A stretch of DNA of 64,000 bases from Candidatus Nomurabacteria bacterium (GTDB lineage Bacteria > Patescibacteriota > Minisyncoccia > Phycocordibacterales > UBA9973). The position numbers were made by a program, and so were the translations under genes. The stretch's first letter is position 1. Each line of letters starts with the position of its first letter. Below are positions 8,111 through 43,783 of the stretch, one piece after another. The stretch spans positions 20,582-84,581 of the forward strand of contig JARIGS010000023.1 in the NCBI GenBank assembly GCA_029288725.1, in the 5' to 3' direction. Below the pieces are notes generated by a model that made no database searches, had not been told where the DNA came from, and was given only the letters and a program-made list of their open reading frames with translations.

Positions 8111-8114
8111 TCGC

Positions 8115-8147
8115 AAAAAGAACCCCGAAAGGGGTTCTTTTTGTTTT
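8115..8147 (+). terminator. Rho-independent terminator after rpsJ
   Basis: AAGAACCCC-GAAA-GGGGTTCTT + TTTGTTTTC. Confidence 0.75.
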
Positions 8148-8190: not shown

Positions 8191-8580
8191 ATGATTAAAA
8201 ATTTTTTAGAATGGATTGGATTAAAAGAGAAATTGGATAGCAATTCAGAAAAACCCGTATATTTTAATGAAATGGAGATATGGTGGGCGGCATTGGGAGA
8301 AAACATTGGAGTAGAGATAAATGGCAATGGTGAGATGTTTTCTCGACCAGTGCTGATATATAAAAAGATAAGTCCGGGGAGTTTTTTAGCAGTCCCTCTG
8401 TCTACTCAAATAAAACAAGGTTCTTGGTATACGGAACTTGATTTTAAAGAGGCTAAAATTTCTGCTAACCTAGCCCAAATTCGTATTATGAGCAGTGCTC
8501 GTCTATACGATAAGATGGGGGAAGCTAATATTGAGGATTTTGAAAAAGTAAAAAGCGGATTTCTCCGCCTTTACTCATAA
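8191..8580 (+). CDS. MazF/PemK-like endoribonuclease-fold protein (putative orphan type II toxin)
   Basis: The core EIWWAALGENIGVEINGNGEMFSRPVLIYKK...SFLAVPLSTQIK aligns with the PemK/MazF/EndoA motif GDVYxADLSPxxGSEQxGxRPVLVIxxD...xVVAxxTxQ. Preceded by a 25-aa conserved N-terminal extension. AT-rich, about 33% GC. No adjacent antitoxin ORF. Confidence 0.5.
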   Translation: MIKNFLEWIGLKEKLDSNSEKPVYFNEMEIWWAALGENIGVEINGNGEMFSRPVLIYKKISPGSFLAVPLSTQIKQGSWYTELDFKEAKISANLAQIRIMSSARLYDKMGEANIEDFEKVKSGFLRLYS

Positions 8581-10415: not shown

Positions 10416-11261
10416 ATGGCAATGAAAACATACAAACCAACAACCAAATCAAGTCGCAATACCGTGACTATTGATTACCGCAAGGTCCTCACTACAGGCA
10501 AGCCATTGAAGTCACTGACAAAGGGCTCAAAGCGCACTGGCGGACGTAACAACACTGGTCGCATTACTGCTACCCACAAGGGAGGAGGAAACAAGCGTGC
10601 ATACCGCATGGTGGACTTCTTGTACAACAAGCACGACATCCCCGCAAAGATCACTACTGTTGAATACGATCCAAACCGCAGTGGTTTTATCGGTGTGGCA
10701 GTCTACAAGGACGGTGAGAAGCGCTATGTCTTGCTTCCAAAAGGCGTAACTGTCGGCAGTACCTTCGTCGTTGGTGAAAACGTTCCAGTGGAACAAGGTA
10801 ACCGCCTTCCATTGAAAAACATCCCTTCTGGTACTTTTGTATACAACATCGAAATCAAGCCAGGAAAGGGTGCCAAGATGGTGCGCAGTGCCGGAGCATT
10901 TGCTCAGATCATCGCTCAGAATGATGGCTATACCCAGCTCAAGATGCCTTCAACTGAAATCCGTCGCGTACAGGACCTTTGTTGGGCAACTGTTGGTGAA
11001 GTGTCAAACGATGAGCACAAGCTCGTGAAATACGGTAAGGCTGGTCGCTCACGATGGCGAGGTATCCGTCCAACTGTTCGTGGTACTGCCATGAACCCAG
11101 TTGACCACCCACACGGTGGTGGTGAAGGTGTTCAGGGTATCGGTCTCCGTCGCGGTCCTAAGACTCGTCACGGTAAGCAGGCATACGGTGTACGCACTCG
11201 CAGTCCGAAGAAGTACTCAAACAAGCACGTTATCACTCGTCGCAAGAACGGCAAGCGATAA
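10416..11261 (+). CDS. rplB: 50S ribosomal protein L2
   Basis: GRNNTGRITATHKGGGNKRAYR and MNPVDHPHGGGEG. Confidence 0.97.
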   Translation: MAMKTYKPTTKSSRNTVTIDYRKVLTTGKPLKSLTKGSKRTGGRNNTGRITATHKGGGNKRAYRMVDFLYNKHDIPAKITTVEYDPNRSGFIGVAVYKDGEKRYVLLPKGVTVGSTFVVGENVPVEQGNRLPLKNIPSGTFVYNIEIKPGKGAKMVRSAGAFAQIIAQNDGYTQLKMPSTEIRRVQDLCWATVGEVSNDEHKLVKYGKAGRSRWRGIRPTVRGTAMNPVDHPHGGGEGVQGIGLRRGPKTRHGKQAYGVRTRSPKKYSNKHVITRRKNGKR

Positions 11262-11272
11262 TTATGAAAATA

Positions 11273-11308
11273 AAAAGGGCGCATCCCTACGGGATGCGCC
11301 CTTTTTAT
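11273..11308 (+). terminator. Rho-independent terminator after rplB
   Basis: AGGGCGCATCCC-TAC-GGGATGCGCCCT + TTTTATT. Confidence 0.8.
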
Positions 11309-11365
11309 TGACTTTGCTGTTCTTTACTGTATTGTTTCAAAAAACATTCATAAAAAAATAGCGCA

Positions 11366-12394
11366 ATGAAAAAGAGCCTTCTACTACTTGTATGTCTATC
11401 GACACTATTGAGGGCCCAGGTGCCCCACACGGCCTCTACTGCGATGCCATTTCTCAACTTTATTCCCGATGCCCGGTCTGCCGGCATGGGCGGGGTTTAT
11501 TACGGACGAACTGATGTGAATGTCGGTTTCAATGCCGTTGCCAAGCTGGTGAGTTTGGTTGATGAGCCAACCCAGGTGGGCGTATCGTATACACCCCTCA
11601 AAAACGTTGCTCACAATGCTTACCTCTCAAGTGCAGCCTTTGTTGCTCGGAATGAGCAAGGGGCACTATTTGTAGGGCTTCGGTACTTTACGCCCGGGTC
11701 AGTAGTGCTTGCCGATGGTAATGCCAATTACTTAGGGACGGTCGAGCCGTCCGACATGGTAGTGCAGCTTGGATATGCATTGCCGCTTTCACCGGACTGG
11801 AGCATTTCAGTGACCGGAGGGTGGGCATATTCCAAATTGTTGGATGGTACCTATAACGGTACTACGTACCTCACTGGAAGTGCGGTAATGGCTGATATCG
11901 CCTGCTGTTATGACGGACGCGACATATTTCATCAGGGATTTTCCGGTGGCCTAGCATTGAAAAATATTGGCACCCCAGTTTCTTATACCAAAGAAACTAA
12001 AAGCTTCCTGCCAGCCAGTGCAACGGTAGGAGTTGCGTATACGGCGGTTGGGCCAGGTTCAGTAACGGGATTTACGATCGGGACCCTGATAGGGAAAGTC
12101 CTTATTCCTGCCAACGATACAACTGGCCATACCAGCATGATTCAAGGATTGCTGCATCCTGCGGGAGAAGTAACGTACGCTATCGGTGCCGAGTATTTAT
12201 ACAATTTCGCGGTACAAAAAATGAACCTTAGTGTTCGAGCTGGTTACAGTGGTGGAACTACGAGCACGGGTGGGGTTACGGCCGGCATAGGATATGGATT
12301 CAATAGTATTGCTATCGATGTGGCCTATCGTGCGTCCAATGTCTACGATCCATTTGGTAATACCTTCCGAATTGGGCTCGGATACAAATTTTAG
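11366..12394 (+). CDS. Secreted FadL/PorV/UPF0164-like putative outer-membrane-type beta-barrel protein (paralog 1)
   Basis: Signal peptide MKKSLLLLVCLSTLLRA. Conserved N-terminal D-A-R-S-A-G-M-G-G motif. Long run of alternating-hydrophobic beta-strand patterns. C-terminal ...TFRIGLGYKF ends in an aromatic residue as in OMP barrels. Has its own promoter-like TTGACT box and terminator. Confidence 0.45.
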   Translation: MKKSLLLLVCLSTLLRAQVPHTASTAMPFLNFIPDARSAGMGGVYYGRTDVNVGFNAVAKLVSLVDEPTQVGVSYTPLKNVAHNAYLSSAAFVARNEQGALFVGLRYFTPGSVVLADGNANYLGTVEPSDMVVQLGYALPLSPDWSISVTGGWAYSKLLDGTYNGTTYLTGSAVMADIACCYDGRDIFHQGFSGGLALKNIGTPVSYTKETKSFLPASATVGVAYTAVGPGSVTGFTIGTLIGKVLIPANDTTGHTSMIQGLLHPAGEVTYAIGAEYLYNFAVQKMNLSVRAGYSGGTTSTGGVTAGIGYGFNSIAIDVAYRASNVYDPFGNTFRIGLGYKF

Positions 12395-12404
12395 AATATT
12401 CTGA

Positions 12405-12438
12405 CAATCTCCTCTCTCATAGAGGAGATTTTTTTATT
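12405..12438 (+). terminator. Rho-independent terminator
   Basis: AATCTCCTCTCT-CAT-AGAGGAGATT + TTTTTTATT. Confidence 0.8.
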
Positions 12439-12490
12439 GACTTTTTTAAATAAAATAGTATTTTGTAATAAAACTAAACAATAGAATATT

Positions 12491-13507
12491 ATGAAAAAAT
12501 ACTTGTTTTTGCTCATGTGTGTAGCAAAACACGCTACATTTGCTCAGTCATTGGCCGAGTCTACTACTGTACCGTTATATCGTATAACGTTCGACACTCG
12601 TGCAGCTGGCATGGGTAAGGCCAATACCATTGCTGGTACCCCTGATAACATGGTGATGTTTTCCAATTTGGCAAAACTTCCCTCTGTCATGAATACCGAG
12701 GAAGGGTGGGAGCATACAAAAAACATGTTTGCCGGAGGCATGGCACAATATAACGCTGTCATCATTAACTATCTCGGATATGCTCATGCTGATAAGGACG
12801 GTAATGATTTTTGTGCCATAGCGAAATACCTTAATGGGGGAAATCCTCAGCAGGCATTTCTGGCAGGAAACGACAACTATGAATGGGATATTGAAATGGG
12901 CTATGCTAAAAGCATAGGAGATGCCTGGAGCGTGTCAGTAATGACCAAACTGCTTCAGTCAGAAACTAATAGCAAAGCAATAAATACTTTTCTGCCCGCA
13001 GCAACGGTAAGTGCCGATGCGCTCAGTCTCGATCTAGGAGCCTATTACGCTGACCTTAGTGAAATAGGCGCTGGTACGACTATCGGTTTCATGCTTTCCA
13101 ACCTTGGTACACCGCTGAATTACGGTCACGCCCTTATCAGGATACTTCCTGCCACGGTTGGAGCCGGAATAAGCCATACTTGGATAGAAGGAGTGCATAA
13201 CAATGCAATTACTACCTCTTTTGAGGTGAATAAGTCATTAAGCTTTCCATTTCCCGGTCCGTATCTTACATTGTCAGGCGGATTCGAGTACAGTCTTCGG
13301 ACTGACCCGGTAAAGACTGACGGTTTCAGTATCCGTATGGGGTATTGCGACGATAGCTTTATACACGAGTATTCCGGCATCACTATTGGCATCGGTATTG
13401 GCTTCAGGAAAATCCACCTCGACATGGCCAGTTTCATCGATCCGAGTGGCAGGGGAGAAAGCCCTCTCTATAACAAATTGCACGCTACGATATCGTATGG
13501 ATTGTAA
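12491..13507 (+). CDS. Secreted FadL/PorV/UPF0164-like putative beta-barrel protein (paralog 2)
   Basis: Signal peptide. FDTRAAGMGKA motif (the same D-x-R-x-A-G-M-G signature as paralog 1). Alternating beta-strand patterns (ITIGIGIGF, LHATISYGL). Confidence 0.45.
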   Translation: MKKYLFLLMCVAKHATFAQSLAESTTVPLYRITFDTRAAGMGKANTIAGTPDNMVMFSNLAKLPSVMNTEEGWEHTKNMFAGGMAQYNAVIINYLGYAHADKDGNDFCAIAKYLNGGNPQQAFLAGNDNYEWDIEMGYAKSIGDAWSVSVMTKLLQSETNSKAINTFLPAATVSADALSLDLGAYYADLSEIGAGTTIGFMLSNLGTPLNYGHALIRILPATVGAGISHTWIEGVHNNAITTSFEVNKSLSFPFPGPYLTLSGGFEYSLRTDPVKTDGFSIRMGYCDDSFIHEYSGITIGIGIGFRKIHLDMASFIDPSGRGESPLYNKLHATISYGL

Positions 13508-13508
13508 T

Positions 13509-13544
13509 CAAAGCCCTTTTGCTTTTAGCAAAAGGGCTTTTTCT
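13509..13544 (+). terminator. Rho-independent terminator
   Basis: AAAGCCCTTTTGC-TTTTA-GCAAAAGGGCTTT + TT. Confidence 0.75.
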
Positions 13545-13576
13545 ATAGCATTTTCTCTAAATGCTATACTTCTCCC

Positions 13577-13987
13577 ATGGATCGCCTTCCCAAACACATT
13601 TCCGAAAAGAAACGCTTTTCATTCATTGCTCGTGTCCGAAGTTTCCGGTATGCCATTCGGGGCATGGGCATTATTCTAAAAACCCAGCATAATTTCTGGA
13701 TACAGATTGTTGCGGCCGGTGTTGTGGCGTATTTGGGTATATTTTTCCATATTGCCGCTACCGAATGGGCATTACTGGTATTGGCTGTAACAGGGGTATT
13801 GGTAGCTGAATCCTTTAATACTGCCATTGAAATTGACATTGATTTGACCAGTCCTCAGTACCATCCCTATGCTCGGGATACCAAGGATGTAGCCGCTGGA
13901 GCAGTATTATTGGCCGTTATTGGGGCAATGGTGGTCGGCTGTATCGTCTTTCTGCCCAAGATATTTATCCTCTTTTTCGTGAGATAG
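13577..13987 (+). CDS. dgkA: Diacylglycerol kinase / undecaprenol kinase family protein (DgkA-like)
   Basis: [28 protein letters not shown]...[24 protein letters not shown]...[27 protein letters not shown] matches prokaryotic DAGK family motifs (EN-like FNTAIE, KDxAAGAVL). Confidence 0.8.
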
Positions 13988-13996
13988 CGAAATCAT

Positions 13997-14024
13997 TTGA
14001 CTTTCCGGTGCTATCTGATAAGAT
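13997..14024 (+). promoter_or_regulatory. Candidate promoter re-initiating rpsS onward (TTGACT-16-TAAGAT)
   Basis: -35 TTGACT at 13997..14002 and -10 TAAGAT at 14019..14024, between dgkA and rpsS. Confidence 0.4.
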
Positions 14025-14061
14025 AGTGGAGCTCAAATCGAGCTTCTTTTATTTCAGGTAT

Positions 14062-14406
14062 ATGACACGATCACTCGCAAAAGGTCCTTACGTTGACCCA
14101 AAATTACTCAAAAAAATCGAAGGTAAGACCCCTCTTTCAACAGGGTCTATTCGAACATGGTCACGTGACAGTCAGATTGCCCCAGAAATGGTAGGATTCA
14201 CCTTTGGTGTCCACAACGGCAAGCAGCACATTGAAGTGTTGGTGACCGAAGACATGGTAGGGCACCGTTTGGGTGAATTTTCTCCTACTCGCAAGTTTAC
14301 CCGTCACGGTGGTAAGATGCAGAAGGATATTGACCAGAAGAAAAAAGAAGCTGAAATCGCCGCTGCAAAGTCTGCAAAATCAACCGGTGATGCTAAGAAA
14401 AAATAA
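14062..14406 (+). CDS. rpsS: 30S ribosomal protein S19 (Lys/Ala-rich C-terminal tail)
   Basis: [20 protein letters not shown]...[18 protein letters not shown]. The ORF opens at 14008; the conserved start is at 14062. Confidence 0.95.
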
Positions 14407-15476: not shown

Positions 15477-15893
15477 ATGTTATTCCCTAAAAAAGTAAAA
15501 TTCCGAAAGTGGCAAAAGAAACGAACTGATATGAGTAATCGTGTGGAAACACGCGGTACTACCATCAACTTTGGTTCTTACGCACTCAAGACTGAGAGCA
15601 TGGGTCGCGTGACTTCAAATCAGATTGAAGCTGCACGTAAGGCGGCAAGTCGTCACCTCACCAAGGTTGGTCGCATGTGGATCCGCATCTTCCCTGACCG
15701 TCCATTTACCGAAAAGGCCGCACAGCAGCCGATGGGTAAGGGTAAGGGTGAATTGCAGGGATACCATGTGGAAATCCTTCCAGGTCGCATTATTTTTGAA
15801 GTAGACGGCGTTGATGAGGCAGTTGCTCGCGAAGCATTGCGCAAGGCAGGTACCAAGCTTCCTGTTAAGACTCGTGTCATTTCACGTGCCTAG
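15477..15893 (+). CDS. rplP: 50S ribosomal protein L16
   Basis: MLFPKKVKFRKWQKKR...WIRIFPDRPFTEKAAQQPMGKGKG. Confidence 0.95.
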   Translation: MLFPKKVKFRKWQKKRTDMSNRVETRGTTINFGSYALKTESMGRVTSNQIEAARKAASRHLTKVGRMWIRIFPDRPFTEKAAQQPMGKGKGELQGYHVEILPGRIIFEVDGVDEAVAREALRKAGTKLPVKTRVISRA

Positions 15894-15930
15894 ACAAAAG
15901 GTAAAAAATAAGTAAGATACAAACACTATT

Positions 15931-16188
15931 ATGAAAGCAACTACTACCACAACTGAAGCAGCAAAGAAGACCCTCAAGGGGAAAGTTTTGTCCAACAAGA
16001 TGGACAAGACGGCTGTTGTTGCGGTTACTCGTTTCGTGAAGCATCCAAAGTACAAGAAGTACTTCAAGATCACCAAGAAATTCAAGGCTCATGATGAGAA
16101 CAACACGGCAGTAATTGGTGAAACAGTGGCAATCGTCGAAACCCGCCCACTATCAAAGGATAAGCATTTTGCCATCGTGCAGCAATAA
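15931..16188 (+). CDS. rpsQ: 30S ribosomal protein S17
   Basis: [44 protein letters not shown]...[15 protein letters not shown]. Confidence 0.93.
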
Positions 16189-17402: not shown

Positions 17403-17441
17403 AAAAAATCCCCAGGAGGTCTGACCTCCTGGGGATTTTTG
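17403..17441. terminator. Bidirectional terminator (AAAATCCCCAGGAGGT-CTGA-CCTCCTGGGGATTTT)
   Basis: 15-bp stem with A-run and T-run on either side. Ends rplE (plus) and the minus-strand coiled-coil gene. Confidence 0.8.
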
Positions 17442-17450
17442 CTTACAGCA

Positions 17451-17882
17451 TTAGGGCTTAAATTTCAGTGCAAATTGGTCGAACTGACGGTGGGTGACAA
17501 AACGGTCATCGAGGTTAAGGATATCTTGTCGGACTTTGAGAAAATTGTTGTCCATATCGTTAAATCGTTCGTCCATTTCTACAAAATGGGTATCTATGGC
17601 CGTAAATCGGTTCATTACCATAATGGTGAGTTTTTCAATTAAGGTATCAATTTCTTGGAATTTTATGTCCATTTTATTTTCTAAACAACCAAGTTTATTT
17701 TCTACGTTAAACATTCGGCTATCCAAACTATCGATTTTTGTTTCTATTTTAGACATTCTCGTTTCCATGTTGGACACTCTTGTGTCTAGGCCATCTATTT
17801 TGCCAGCCAAGCCAAGTACCAAATGCCCGACCTCGGTAATGGTCATTTCCTGGGAAATATGCTGTTCGACCTGCTTTTTCAT
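17451..17882 (-). CDS. Hypothetical coiled-coil protein
   Basis: 143 aa of heptad-like repeats (TRVSNMETRMSKIETKIDSLDSRMFNVENKLGCLENKMD...). No TM segment. Sits on the opposite strand, between rplE and rpsN. Confidence 0.55.
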   Translation of the reverse strand: MKKQVEQHISQEMTITEVGHLVLGLAGKIDGLDTRVSNMETRMSKIETKIDSLDSRMFNVENKLGCLENKMDIKFQEIDTLIEKLTIMVMNRFTAIDTHFVEMDERFNDMDNNFLKVRQDILNLDDRFVTHRQFDQFALKFKP

Positions 17883-28676: not shown

Positions 28677-28683
28677 TAATTTG

Positions 28684-29064
28684 TGGAGATGGGGGTATCG
28701 AAACCCCGTGTGGGTGGAGTGGGCAAGTAAATCTCCATGCGTAGTATCACTTAATGTTTAAGCAACGATCTCGAAGTAATACGAAACGATCATTGTCCGA
28801 GTCTCGTCTTATTCGGTGCGCTCCTGAGACGGGGAGGGCTGCCTATTCTGATGCATGTTGCCGCGAAGTCCTTATCAGAAATCTAGACTGCGACACCAAT
28901 TTGACCTAAGTTAGGCGAAGATTGGAATAGCGCCTGCCATGTAGGGAGACGCTACCTTAGATGAACTGTTTGCAGTTATCTGTGTGAGCGAAGGTTACGG
29001 GATTGCGCTCATACCCGGCATGCATACTTGTCCGACGACCATCCGTCGAAACCTTACATCCCCA
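28684..29064 (-). ncRNA. ssrA: tmRNA (transfer-messenger RNA)
   Basis: The minus-strand RNA starts GGGGAUGUAAGGUUUCGACGG. The 3' end ...CACGGGGUUUCGAUACCCCCAUCUCCA forms a 7-bp acceptor stem with the 5' end, including a G3-U70 wobble (alanine identity). CCA is not encoded. An internal tag-like frame GCA AAC AGU ... ends AUUCCAAUCUUCGCC-UAA. Sits immediately 3' of smpB. Confidence 0.8.
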
Positions 29065-29500
29065 TTTTTATAGCTCGATCAATATCGCGTCGATCGGCCT
29101 TTTCTTTCAAGGTATTTCGCTTATCAGCCACCTTCTTACCCTTTGCAATGGCAATGGAGAGCTTGATGAGCGAGCCTTTATTATACAATGAAATTGGCAC
29201 TATGGTCAATCCTTTGGTATTGAGGGCTTTTGATAGGTCGTAGAGTTCCTTCTTGCGAACAAGCAACTTGCGGGTGCGGTAGGGGTCATAGCCGGTACCG
29301 GCATTCTTTTCCTGCCAGGCCGGAATATGGGCACCCAAAAGCCATAACTCGCCATTGAGCAGGGTAACGTGGCTGCCGGTGAGGCTGCCGTGCTGGGCTT
29401 TGACCGATTTGACCTCGGTGCCGAGCAATTCGATGCCGGTTTCCATCGTTTCCTGAAGGGTGAAATTAAGGCTGGCCTTTTTGTTACGGAGGTATTCCAT
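29054..29500 (-). CDS. smpB: SsrA-binding protein SmpB
   Basis: GIELLGTEVKSVKAQHGSLTGSHVTLLNGELWLLGAHI...GYDPYRTRKLLVRKKE. The 3' end overlaps the tmRNA 5' end by about 11 nt. Confidence 0.9.
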   Translation of the reverse strand: MEYLRNKKASLNFTLQETMETGIELLGTEVKSVKAQHGSLTGSHVTLLNGELWLLGAHIPAWQEKNAGTGYDPYRTRKLLVRKKELYDLSKALNTKGLTIVPISLYNKGSLIKLSIAIAKGKKVADKRNTLKEKADRRDIDRAIKMGM

Positions 29501-33705: not shown

Positions 33706-33779
33706 CCGTCCTTAGCTCAGTTGGTTAGAGCTCCGAGCTTATACCTCGGCGGTCCATGGTTCGAATCCATGAGGACGGA
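33706..33779 (+). tRNA. tRNA-Ile with anticodon UAU (TAT)
   Basis: Cloverleaf: acceptor CCGTCCT/AGGACGG, D arm GCTC-AGTTGGTTA-GAGC, anticodon stem CCGAG/CTCGG with loop CTTATAC, T arm CATGG-TTCGAAT-CCATG, discriminator A. CCA is not encoded. Confidence 0.75.
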
Positions 33780-33824
33780 CAAACAAAAAACCCAGATAAA
33801 AATATCTGAGTTTAATTTCTTTTA

Positions 33825-40079: not shown

Positions 40080-40164
40080 GGAGGATTGGATGAGTGGTTT
40101 AAATCAACGGTTTACTAAACCGTCGGCTGTCACAGGCCCGTGAGTTCGAATCTCACATCCTCCG
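40080..40164 (+). tRNA. Class II tRNA (Ser-type: 3-bp D stem, long variable arm, G73) with apparent anticodon ACU
   Basis: Acceptor GGAGGAT/ATCCTCC. D stem GAT/ATC. Anticodon stem ACGGT/ACCGT with loop TTACTAA. Variable arm about 16 nt. T arm GTGAG-TTCGAAT-CTCAC. CCA is not encoded. GCU or a UCN-reading anticodon was expected; A34 is unusual. Confidence 0.6.
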
Positions 40165-40262
40165 CCTTCGCCGCGCTGAAGCGACGGCTACGGCGCGACA
40201 CAGTCCGCCCAGTAGCAAGTCGCGAAAGCGGGTTCGCCGCGCCGTAGCTTCGACGAAACGCA
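40164..40262. repeat. Longest GC-rich hairpin-repeat family copy, overlapping and abutting the tRNA 3' end
   Basis: CCTCCGCCTTCGCCGCGCTGAAGCGACGGCTACGGCGCGAC...CGCCGCGCCGTAGCTTCGACG. Contains both GCTACGGCG and its reverse complement CGCCGTAGC as an imperfect roughly 16-bp inverted repeat. About 70% GC in a roughly 35% GC neighbourhood. Confidence 0.6.
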
Positions 40263-41604: not shown

Positions 41605-41753
41605 TTCCTATACTTTTTATGTGATTTGAGAATGTGGATTTTCTAAAATAATATCACATTTATCATAAAAGTCAATTAGCCTTGACGATACAGGGTGAAA
41701 TGACTATTATCACCATTGTAAGGTTAATTTGTCTACGGACGTACTATTTATAT

Positions 41754-43136
41754 ATGAAGAAATTTGGATACAAATCAATATTAGCAATGGTTATCGGGGC
41801 GGTCGCATCACTGGCTTTTGCCGCTCAGGTATTTGCCATGACACCAACATTGTCACTGACCAGTAACGGCTATGGCAGCATGCAGGTCAATGTCTTTGGC
41901 GATGCCAATGCCTCAGTGATCTTGGATTATTATTCAGGTGGACAGCTCATGGGGGCCGGGGTGATCGGTACTACCAACTACAGTGGCTATTTCAGCGGGC
42001 AGTTGAATCCGGGCAACTATGCGATTCCCAACGGCGCACAGGTCTTGGTTGTAGTAAACGGCCAGCAGTCAGCATCAACTACCTGGACTAACAATGGTTA
42101 TAACAACGGTGGATACAATAACGGCTCACTGTCACTCAGCCAGACATCAGTGAACCTTTCTGTTGGCCAGAGCGTGAGTATCACTGCTTACAATACCAGC
42201 GGTTCATTGTATGTTTCAACTAACTCAAACAGTGCAGTAGCAAATGCGACAGCATACGGTAATCAAATCACTATCAACGCTGTTGGATACGGATCCTCAT
42301 CACTGACAATTTGCTCTACCTACAATTACAATGGATGCAGTACTGTCTATGTAACCGTGAATGGTGGCTCAAATAATCAGACACCGGTGAGTCTCAGTCA
42401 GTCTAACGTGTCATTGGTAGTAGGGCAGACGCAGACGGTCTACATCAATAGTCTCTACAACAACAATAACGGCTATTACAACAATGGTCAGTACACCCTT
42501 TCCAATCTTTCAAGTGGTATCGTCTCTGCAACGATCAGCGGCAATGCCATTACCTTGTACGGACAGAATGCCGGCTCATCTACTATTAGTGTCTGCTCAA
42601 ACGGCTATAACGGGGGATACAATAATGGCTACTACGGCAGCACCACCTGTGCGAACTTGTACGTAACCGTTACAGGAAACTACGGATATCCTACCAATCC
42701 AACCTACCCATACTATCCACCAAACAATTACTACAACCAGCTCACGGTAAGCAACAGCAATGTTCAGGTGACTGTCGGAAACAGTGGCAGCGTGGTGATC
42801 AATGGCGGTATTAATTATTACAACAATGGCTATAACGGTGGATACACTAATGGGTATTACGGTTCTGGCAATGACTTCTACATAGCAAATAATAATTCCG
42901 GCATTGCCAATGCAACCATCAATGGAAATAACATCACCGTTTACGGTCTTGCAGCGGGCACGACTTCAGTGACAGTGTGTCAGACCAGTACCAATCAGTG
43001 CGCGACGATCAATGTCACGGTCATCGCACCGAACTACTACAACTACGGCATCTATAATGGACAGTACCAGTACGTTCCTTCACAGAATGGTCAGTACTAC
43101 TACTCATACAATGAACGCCGTTGGTGTCATCGATAA
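41754..43136 (+). CDS. Secreted surface protein with four Big_2-like (bacterial Ig-like) repeats separated by Asn/Gly/Tyr-rich linkers
   Basis: Signal peptide. Repeated unit LSLSQTSVNLSVGQSVSIT...AVANATAYGNQITINAVGYGSSSLTICS...CSTVYVTVNG. NNGYYNNG low-complexity linkers. The ORF is open from 41682. Confidence 0.55.
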   Translation: MKKFGYKSILAMVIGAVASLAFAAQVFAMTPTLSLTSNGYGSMQVNVFGDANASVILDYYSGGQLMGAGVIGTTNYSGYFSGQLNPGNYAIPNGAQVLVVVNGQQSASTTWTNNGYNNGGYNNGSLSLSQTSVNLSVGQSVSITAYNTSGSLYVSTNSNSAVANATAYGNQITINAVGYGSSSLTICSTYNYNGCSTVYVTVNGGSNNQTPVSLSQSNVSLVVGQTQTVYINSLYNNNNGYYNNGQYTLSNLSSGIVSATISGNAITLYGQNAGSSTISVCSNGYNGGYNNGYYGSTTCANLYVTVTGNYGYPTNPTYPYYPPNNYYNQLTVSNSNVQVTVGNSGSVVINGGINYYNNGYNGGYTNGYYGSGNDFYIANNNSGIANATINGNNITVYGLAAGTTSVTVCQTSTNQCATINVTVIAPNYYNYGIYNGQYQYVPSQNGQYYYSYNERRWCHR

Positions 43137-43695: not shown

Positions 43696-43783
43696 TGGCG
43701 GAGACGGAGGGATTCGAACCCTCGAGGCTGTGACACCTGCCTCCTTAGCAAGGAGGTACGTTAGACCACTCCGACACGTCTCC
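43696..43783 (-). tRNA. tRNA-Ser (anticodon GCU), CCA encoded
   Basis: Minus-strand sequence GGAGACGTGTCGGAGTGGTCTAACGTACCTCCTTGCTAAGGAGG...GGGTTCGAATCCCTCCGTCTCCGCCA. Anticodon loop TTGCTAA, long variable arm, G73, 3' CCA. Confidence 0.85.

Follow-up and report, generated by a model that had tools for sequence, protein, structure and literature searches.

The DNA discussed here, called the window in what follows, is a stretch of 64,000 nucleotides (64 kb) on contig JARIGS010000023.1 of a Candidatus Nomurabacteria bacterium, a member of the candidate phyla radiation (CPR). Between two of its ribosomal protein genes, rplB (L2) and rpsS (S19), lie two genes, barrel gene 1 and barrel gene 2, whose products (P1 and P2 respectively) belong to the known PorV/PorQ family of outer-membrane-type beta-barrels, as new and highly divergent members met in an unexpected host. 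We think it likely that both genes were acquired horizontally from a diderm of Bacteroidota type and entered a cargo slot which already existed at this place, that they are transcribed independently of the ribosomal genes, and that their products are exported through Sec without any outer membrane role in the CPR cell. The simplest account of their presence is ordinary gene transfer; the whole case stands on one contig of a metagenome-assembled genome (MAG).

Two barrels of the PorV/PorQ family

Both proteins exceed the curated cut-off of the NCBIfam model for the PorV/PorQ family (NF033709, 90 bits), P1 with 187.2 bits and P2 with 104 bits, as well as that of the Pfam PorV family (PF19572, 27 bits), with 65 and 28.6 bits respectively. 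Both miss the equivalog models, that of PorV (NF033710, cut-off 250 bits) with 158.8 bits for P1 and 83.3 bits for P2, and that of PorQ (NF033711, cut-off 220 bits) with 66 and 37.6 bits. Because they fail these equivalog tests, P1 and P2 are, as far as sequence scores can tell, to be classed as members of the PorV/PorQ family and not as PorV proper. The FadL/Toluene_X profile (PF03349) gave no sequence match at E <= 1 for either protein, and a phmmer search of the PDB with P1 returned PorV as sole sequence match (E 1.4e-21). P1 and P2 share 28% identity with each other.

The predicted structures lead to the same family. AlphaFold2 models, for which an alignment of 148 sequences served as input, reach a predicted local distance difference test score (pLDDT) of 92.3 and a predicted template modelling score (pTM) of 0.88 for P1, and 84.3 and 0.83 for P2; both consist of 14 long strands preceded by a short helical N-terminal segment. 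When they are compared by Foldseek to solved structures, the best matches of both are 8GL6 and 6H3I chain F, i.e. PorV within the SprA translocon of Flavobacterium johnsoniae, with a template modelling (TM) score of 0.78-0.79 for P1 and 0.72-0.75 for P2; the next matches, again for both, are FadL, TodX and TbuX, at about 0.5-0.59. The original prediction, made from the DNA letters without any database search, had described the two products as FadL/PorV-like barrels. It is upheld by the profile scores, by the confidence of the models and by the first place of PorV among solved structures: P1 and P2 are modelled as PorV-type barrels of the FadL fold, with an N-terminal hatch segment. Both models are 14-stranded, and the closure of the barrel is deduced from their full-length superposition on solved structures, not from the coordinates.

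Signal peptides and a common N-terminal motif D-x-R-x-A-G-M-G had also been announced, and they are present in the two proteins. Read from the sequence, the signal peptide ends in ...LRA in P1 and in ...TFA in P2, each followed by Q, and the motif (PDARSAGMG in P1, FDTRAAGMG in P2) matches the conserved hatch motif of the family. The Gln which directly follows the cleavage site is kept in P1 and P2 and found in 96% of the PorV/PorQ family; it agrees with the "Q-rule" for the substrates of signal peptidase I in Bacteroidota. As to the aromatic C-terminus in the style of outer membrane proteins, P1 ends in ...RIGLGYKF and P2 in ...ISYGL.

The two paralogs differ in how far they keep the features of the family. 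Fifty-eight positions are conserved at 75% or more (in P1 numbering the set features D-x-R-x-x-G-M-G, N200/G202, P216, G222, R291/G293 and G307/G309); P1 keeps 45 of them and P2 only 35, for a family mean of 50.8 and a 5th percentile of 41.2, under which P2 falls. The hydrophobicity of the lipid face follows the same trend: 1.61 for P1 (versus -0.33 for its lumen face) and 0.98-1.16 for P2, the value of the family being 1.41 ± 0.16. The lipid face of P2 is the weakest of the family, and its deficit is found chiefly in the first nine strands. P1 looks family-typical in its conserved residues and lipid face, and membrane-competent, and we read it as still constrained as a membrane barrel; P2 looks eroded, which suggests that it is decaying or re-purposed.

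The state of P2, at 35 conserved positions for a 5th percentile of 41 and with such a lipid face, could be taken as a sign that both genes are dead cargo, non-functional remnants heading for loss, all the more as they occur in one genome only and as no partner machinery is evident. We regard this as highly improbable: both frames, of about 340 codons, are fully open, P1 is family-typical on every measure, and clean promoter and terminator modules are kept around the genes.

The rplB-rpsS junction in related genomes

The cluster around the two genes is a normal str-S10-spc array, in the order rpsL, rpsG, fusA, tuf, rpsJ, rplC, rplD, rplW, rplB, rpsS ... rplO, secY, adk, map, and the SecYEG export genes are encoded within it (the features of the region are collected in Table 1). 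Three genes, the two barrel genes and dgkA, had been described as inserted between rplB and rpsS. The open reading frame (ORF) coordinates agree with this content, but dgkA, whose product matches PF01219 with 111.3 bits (cut-off 22.3) over the whole profile (positions 1-102 of 102), does not belong to the insertion. We found six contigs (L084-L089) encoding one L2 variant (P0016) that belongs to the 90%-identity cluster of the window L2; all six have rplB, dgkA and rpsS in this order with nothing else between them. In a wider sample, made of 80 species-representative GTDB loci retrieved with L2, tblastn detects dgkA in the rplB-rpsS gap of 13. Since relatives without barrel genes hold dgkA at the same position, dgkA is the ancestral resident of the gap in this clade, outside the insertion. 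Three of the six contigs (L084, L085 and L088, with 77-85% nucleotide identity to the window) are colinear with it up to position 11261 and again from 13649, and the lineage-specific insertion is a stretch of about 2.3 kb, 11262-13576, carrying only both barrel genes. We also considered the barrels and dgkA as one functional lipid module; this was rejected, dgkA holding the slot without barrels in L084-L089.

The insertion had further been supposed to cut the S10 operon into separately transcribed pieces. In fact the pieces are older. L084 has its own, different terminator hairpin 3' of rplB at the same position, and the rpsS promoter (TTGACTTT-N-TAAGAT) with its hairpin/T-tract leader is kept in the window, in L084, L087 and L088, and in the more distant L001. 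As the rplB terminator and the rpsS promoter and leader occur in relatives without barrel genes, the break of the operon appears to predate the arrival of the barrels. The leader consists of a short GAGCTC...GAGCYTC hairpin and a T-tract between the rpsS promoter and the start codon (13997-14061 in the window, 11350-11413 in L084), and it could act as leader or attenuator for the rpsS-rplE unit. For rpsS itself, the longest ORF begins at GTG 14008; we preferred ATG 14062 because it yields 114 amino acids (aa), as in relatives.

Each barrel gene is a self-contained module bracketed by terminators. An exact repeat of 14 nt, TTTTTATTGACTTT, made of a T-run and a -35 box, is found at 11302 and 12431, ahead of both genes, and this -35 box, TTGACTTT, is that of the clade's own rpsS promoter at 13997. 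The promoter-like boxes and terminators reported around these genes are present as sequence features. Promoter-like matches are not enriched in the region (18 observed for 17.2 expected in shuffled sequence), so that the promoter calls rest on position and on conservation in relatives. The comparison of Shine-Dalgarno sequences does not discriminate, as most host genes also do without the canonical motif and use a AAGAGTTAT-like one. This organization suggests that the barrel genes are insulated from the ribosomal genes and not co-transcribed with them.

The gap between rplB and rpsS is itself of interest. Measured in the loci where both genes were found (54 CPR and 11 non-CPR), it is longer than 400 bp in 37 of the 54 CPR loci, with a maximum of 7,381 bp, while the 11 non-CPR loci that the search also retrieved have gaps of 3 to 180 bp. 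The genes that fill it are unrelated between genomes: OMP (orotidine monophosphate) decarboxylase of pyrF type in 5 loci, phosphoribosyltransferases of pyrE type in 4, dihydroorotate dehydrogenase of pyrD type in 3, besides histidine kinases and, in L001, a pilin-like protein. Several loci yielded no rpsS within 8 kb of downstream flank. From these comparisons the rplB-rpsS junction of Paceibacteria appears as a recurrent hot spot for accessory genes. A PorV-family hidden Markov model (HMM) built from 159 sequences and run on the 3,947 six-frame ORFs of the 80 loci and the window matched only the two window ORFs, which makes the barrel genes, on this sampling, one more cargo in a variable slot that no other sampled locus shares. 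The view that they are hard-wired to the translation core has to be abandoned: the site is empty of them in L084-L089, none of the 80 loci has a PorV-like ORF, and terminators bracket each gene.

Table 1. Features of the rplB-rpsS region, in window positions
Feature	Position	Strand	Description	Basis
rplB (L2)	10416..11261	+	left flank of slot	ORF map
intrinsic-terminator hairpin 3' of rplB	11269..11309	+	perfect 19-bp arms, A/T runs on either side; possibly bidirectional	
promoter-like site, barrel gene 1	11308..11335	+	TTGACT-16-TATTGT	
barrel gene 1 (P1)	11366..12394	+	342 aa; PorV/PorQ family	ORF map and HMMs
terminator 3' of barrel gene 1	12406..12437	+	10-bp stem (hairpin 12406-12430) and T-run	
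promoter-like site, barrel gene 2	12437..12464	+	TTGACT-16-TATTTT	
barrel gene 2 (P2)	12491..13507	+	338 aa; divergent PorV/PorQ-family paralog	ORF map and HMMs
terminator hairpin 3' of barrel gene 2	13510..13540	+	perfect 14-bp arms and T-run	
dgkA-type lipid kinase (DAGK_prokar)	13577..13987	+	136 aa	ORF map and PF01219
rpsS promoter and leader	13997..14061	+	TTGACT-16-TAAGAT (13997-14024), TG-extended; then small hairpin, T-tract	
rpsS (S19)	14062..14406	+	114 aa from ATG 14062; right flank of slot	

Host envelope, origin of the barrels and their possible role

The assignment of the genome to CPR (Paceibacteria) is sound. The window L2 falls into a 90%-identity cluster with MAGs of Candidatus Paceibacterota, the Patescibacteria group and Candidatus Nomurabacteria, and the best 67 of the 80 loci retrieved with L2 are Patescibacteria-type MAGs. 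The absence of rpmD (uL30), one of the hallmarks on which the original prediction relied, is confirmed: only 4 nt separate the end of rpsE (20227) from the start of rplO (20232), which leaves no room for it, and L084 has the same arrangement. The other hallmark, a type IV pilus locus without PilQ secretin, is confirmed as well, since the locus comprises pilM, pilO, pilB, pilT, pilC, pilins and pilD while no secretin domain was detected in any scanned ORF of the 64-kb window. At 41682-43136 (+) the window encodes a secreted Asn/Tyr/Gly-rich repeat protein of 484 aa with a PF13629 domain (T2SS-T3SS_pil_N) at residues 405-447 and no secretin domain; PF13629 is typical of the N-termini of CpaC/RcpA secretins.

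Could the lineage nevertheless possess an outer membrane, or an outer-membrane-like layer housing the barrels? Two intact outer-membrane-type barrels with signal peptides invite this idea, which was one of the two proposed at the outset, and no image of the envelope of this lineage is known. Yet among the scanned ORFs of the 64 kb we found no domain of BamA/POTRA/Bac_surface_Ag, LptD/Lpt, Lol, TolC or OmpA, and none of type IX secretion (SprA, PorU, PorP/SprF, C-terminal-domain cargo), and the pilus locus, as said, is devoid of secretin. Besides, the barrel genes occur in one genome only, their nearest relatives are from Bacteroidota, and relatives of the same L2 cluster have no barrels, so that an envelope layer depending on them is not a trait of the lineage. 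Patescibacteria are moreover treated in the literature as lacking an outer membrane (PMC12102498, PMC8871954). We hold this explanation to be the least probable of all those weighed here. The second idea proposed at the outset, a FadL-type fold in a different envelope context, could conceivably apply.

The relatives of P1 and P2 point to a diderm source. P1 and P2 form single-member clusters in a library that draws on about 15 billion proteins, and both come from the same NCBI contig of 86 kb. When 1.84 billion cluster representatives were searched exhaustively with phmmer, the closest sequence to P1 had 37% identity; in a word-indexed search the relatives of P1 stand at 30% or less, and the same kind of search with P2 recovers only P2 itself. 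A profile search returned only 27 proteins, none of them labelled as CPR. The nearest homologs of the barrels are all in diderm contexts, with Bacteroidota affinity: P0002, a true PorV, adjoins a C25 (PorU-type) peptidase and PorP/SprF; P0028 and P0029 lie downstream of MBG_2 proteins and near TonB-type receptors; P0034 adjoins a resistance-nodulation-division (RND) pump with TolC, and its cluster and neighbours are labelled Mucilaginibacter/Sphingobacteriales. By neighbour-joining, P1, P2, P0034 and P0122 form a four-leaf clade in 39 of 50 bootstraps, a grouping which long-branch attraction may inflate. Among 49 window genes, gene 1 departs most from the host in its synonymous codon use, while gene 2 is unremarkable in this respect; the GC contents, 0.50 for gene 1 and 0.45 for gene 2, are host-like.

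Two observations were made in passing on these homologs. The nearest ones to P1 (34-37% identity; L082 7575-11038, L083 691-4154 and the P0029 contig) stand directly downstream of an MBG_2 protein of about 760-810 aa, and MBG_2 plus barrel forms a recurring diderm gene pair, distinct from the canonical porU-porV pairs of the type IX secretion system (T9SS). P0031, a protein of 1,465 aa labelled as coming from the fungus Russula earlei, has a PorV-like domain at residues 1128-1463, and is probably a bacterial contamination or a mis-fused gene model. A phage vector was also considered and set aside: tblastn on phage records gave three weak matches (28-30% identity) on unannotated faecal "Bacteriophage sp." fragments, which we took as Bacteroidota-like fragments.

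The scenario that we favor, a transfer into the existing slot, would then run as follows. One lineage of Paceibacteria would have acquired both barrel genes from a diderm donor of Bacteroidota type, and the genes would have landed between the rplB terminator and dgkA, at the existing transcriptional break. Each would be transcribed from its own sigma-70-type promoter, the terminators insulating it from the ribosomal genes, and the products would be exported by SecYEG and cleaved before the conserved Gln. PorV of Bacteroidota is an outer membrane protein which, at the SprA translocon, binds T9SS cargo through the cargo's C-terminal domains and passes it on. P1 and P2 cannot act in this way in their present host, because neither T9SS, nor beta-barrel assembly machinery (BAM), nor outer membrane is evident. 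The exported barrels may be transient cargo; if P1 is functional, it would most plausibly be a FadL-like passive channel, or an element of adhesion, where the cell meets a diderm host.

Before a transfer is accepted, an artefact of assembly or binning has to be weighed, in which a 2.3-kb fragment of a co-occurring Bacteroidota genome would have been joined into the CPR contig. One contig, in one MAG, is the only source of the species and of both proteins; searches for exact copies of P1, L2, S19 and DgkA retrieved no independent assembly, and an exact 24-mer of gene 1 has 0 matches in metagenome_contigs. The codon usage of gene 1, the most atypical in the window, and the Bacteroidota-style signal peptides also go in this direction. 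However, colinearity with CPR relatives is seen on both sides of the fragment, which lies exactly between genes, so that two precise chimeric joins would be required; the -35 box ahead of both barrel genes matches the rpsS promoter of the clade, and their GC is host-like. Bacteroidota being densely sampled, the lack of any homolog above 37% is unexpected for the fragment of an abundant neighbour, and the slot holds varied cargo in many independent MAGs. An artefact seems to us very unlikely.

Another possibility is that the barrels work at the surface of another cell: the epibiont would secrete them, and they would lodge in a host's outer membrane (a diderm of Bacteroidota-like type) or in a contact structure, there forming a conduit for lipids or other hydrophobic molecules, and the DgkA-type kinase would feed the lipids into the synthesis of the CPR membrane. 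CPR bacteria are not known to synthesise lipids de novo and scavenge them from their hosts; FadL and TodX, of the same fold family, carry hydrophobic substrates; and the nearest homologs are in Bacteroidota, which are plausible both as host and as donor. The genes themselves would suit such a role, P1 being intact, with its hatch motif, a beta-signal-like ...GLGYKF end and a family-typical lipid face, and both genes having promoter-like sites of their own and host-like GC. On the other hand, the adjacency of dgkA is an accident of the slot, since it is there in barrel-less relatives; P2 shows erosion; the genes are absent in all close relatives and so are not needed for the lifestyle; and we know of no mechanism by which a barrel that depends on Omp85 could enter a foreign membrane from its outer side. 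We consider this conduit unlikely. That the epibiont has domesticated the barrels and uses them outside its single membrane, in the host outer membrane or the contact zone, as a channel for lipids or hydrophobic molecules, is in our opinion quite unlikely too. If true, a use at the host interface would be the first instance of an ultra-small monoderm employing a beta-barrel of outer-membrane type, and a new way of exploiting a host.

The transfer from a diderm of Bacteroidota type into the cargo slot, which we still prefer, meets difficulties of its own. The nearest homolog is only 37% identical and the donor is unsampled, which fits poorly with a recent transfer; such a divergence would suit a long residence in a fast-evolving CPR genome, yet close relatives are without the genes. 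The host-like GC and the promoter boxes argue for a residence long enough for a useless gene to decay, so that "mere passenger" may be too weak a description. Around the insertion we found no transposase, integrase or other mobility gene, no flanking direct or inverted repeats and no target-site duplication. The species has been assembled once, and the continuity of the contig rests on that single assembly. Lastly, the analysis covers 64 kb of the genome, and BAM or T9SS genes may lie elsewhere.

Other features of the window and comparison with known systems

The ribosomal cluster of the window has other irregularities. Between rpsJ and rplC, at 8191-8580 (+), lies an ORF for a PemK/MazF-like toxin (PF02452, 33.9 bits), preceded by a strong terminator at 8113-8144; its GC of 0.36 is the lowest among the genes analysed, no obvious antitoxin adjoins it, and it is absent in close relatives (L084 has a 130-bp gap there). 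In the stretch 17404-17882 (-), between rplE and rpsN/rpsH, lies a 143-aa coiled-coil ORF with a terminator of 17-bp stem, possibly bidirectional, at 17404-17440. As L084-L089 hold a 135-aa ORF at the same position and on the same strand, the clade shares this second interruption, which falls in the spc cluster. The spacing between rplP and rpsQ is 37 bp (15893-15931) and rpmC (L29) is missing from its usual place; in L084 likewise, rplP is followed by an 81-aa S17-like ORF. Outside the cluster, ARAGORN identifies a tRNA-Ser with anticodon ACT at 40080-40166 (+), besides a normal tRNA-Ser GCT at 43696-43783, and a tRNA-Ile with anticodon TAT at 33706-33780 (+); A34 in a tRNA-Ser anticodon ACT is unusual. 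In the stretch 28681-29500 (-), a transfer-messenger RNA (tmRNA; Rfam RF00023, 89 bits) directly adjoins smpB, the annotated end of which it overlaps by about 10 nt.

Our search of the literature brought up no mention of PorV or FadL-type barrels in CPR. The question has a wider bearing, as the monoderm status of CPR feeds the debate on whether the first bacteria had one or two membranes, and intact outer-membrane-type barrels in CPR could be misread as a hidden outer membrane. Being a Bacteroidota-type acquisition in one genome, in a cargo slot, the barrels should not be used as evidence for an outer membrane. They offer instead an example of a BAM-dependent barrel family found, either stranded or put to a new use, in an organism without evident outer membrane, and they could point to a Bacteroidota host or donor. 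The terminator-bounded landing site between rplB and rpsS, set within an S10-spc cluster that is highly conserved elsewhere, bears on binning based on ribosomal proteins, on synteny checks and on gene flux in CPR.

Among known systems, PorV of F. johnsoniae (6H3I, 8GL6 chain F) is the closest likeness: it belongs to the same Pfam and NCBIfam family, with 14 strands, a hatch segment (PFLxIxPDARSxGMG), a signal peptide cleaved before Gln and a C-terminal aromatic residue. The identity is only 18-24%, both window proteins remain under the equivalog cut-off, and P1 is without a segment of about 75 residues of F. johnsoniae PorV (about residues 242-317). The setting differs too, as no SprA, PorU, PorP or gene for cargo with the type IX C-terminal domain is nearby, and the host is a CPR bacterium without evident outer membrane. 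P1 and P2 also resemble PorQ and the non-T9SS members of NF033709, including Treponema UPF0164 (PF03687): they pass the family model and have the short-loop architecture of P0009 and P0011, P0009 also matching UPF0164. They stay, however, well under the PorQ equivalog cut-off, and to our knowledge every characterised protein of the PorV/PorQ family is located in a diderm outer membrane.

With FadL, TodX and TbuX they share the 14-stranded fold and the N-terminal plug, but there is no Toluene_X sequence match and the TM scores are far lower than those to PorV. Finally, parts of Gram-negative-type type IV secretion systems (T4SS; mating pair formation types MPF-T/F) occur sporadically in Patescibacteria MAGs and have been read as independent transfers of unknown functionality (PMC12102498). 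Those parts are T4SS proteins and not barrels; like P1 and P2, they are diderm-type envelope components met in isolated CPR genomes.

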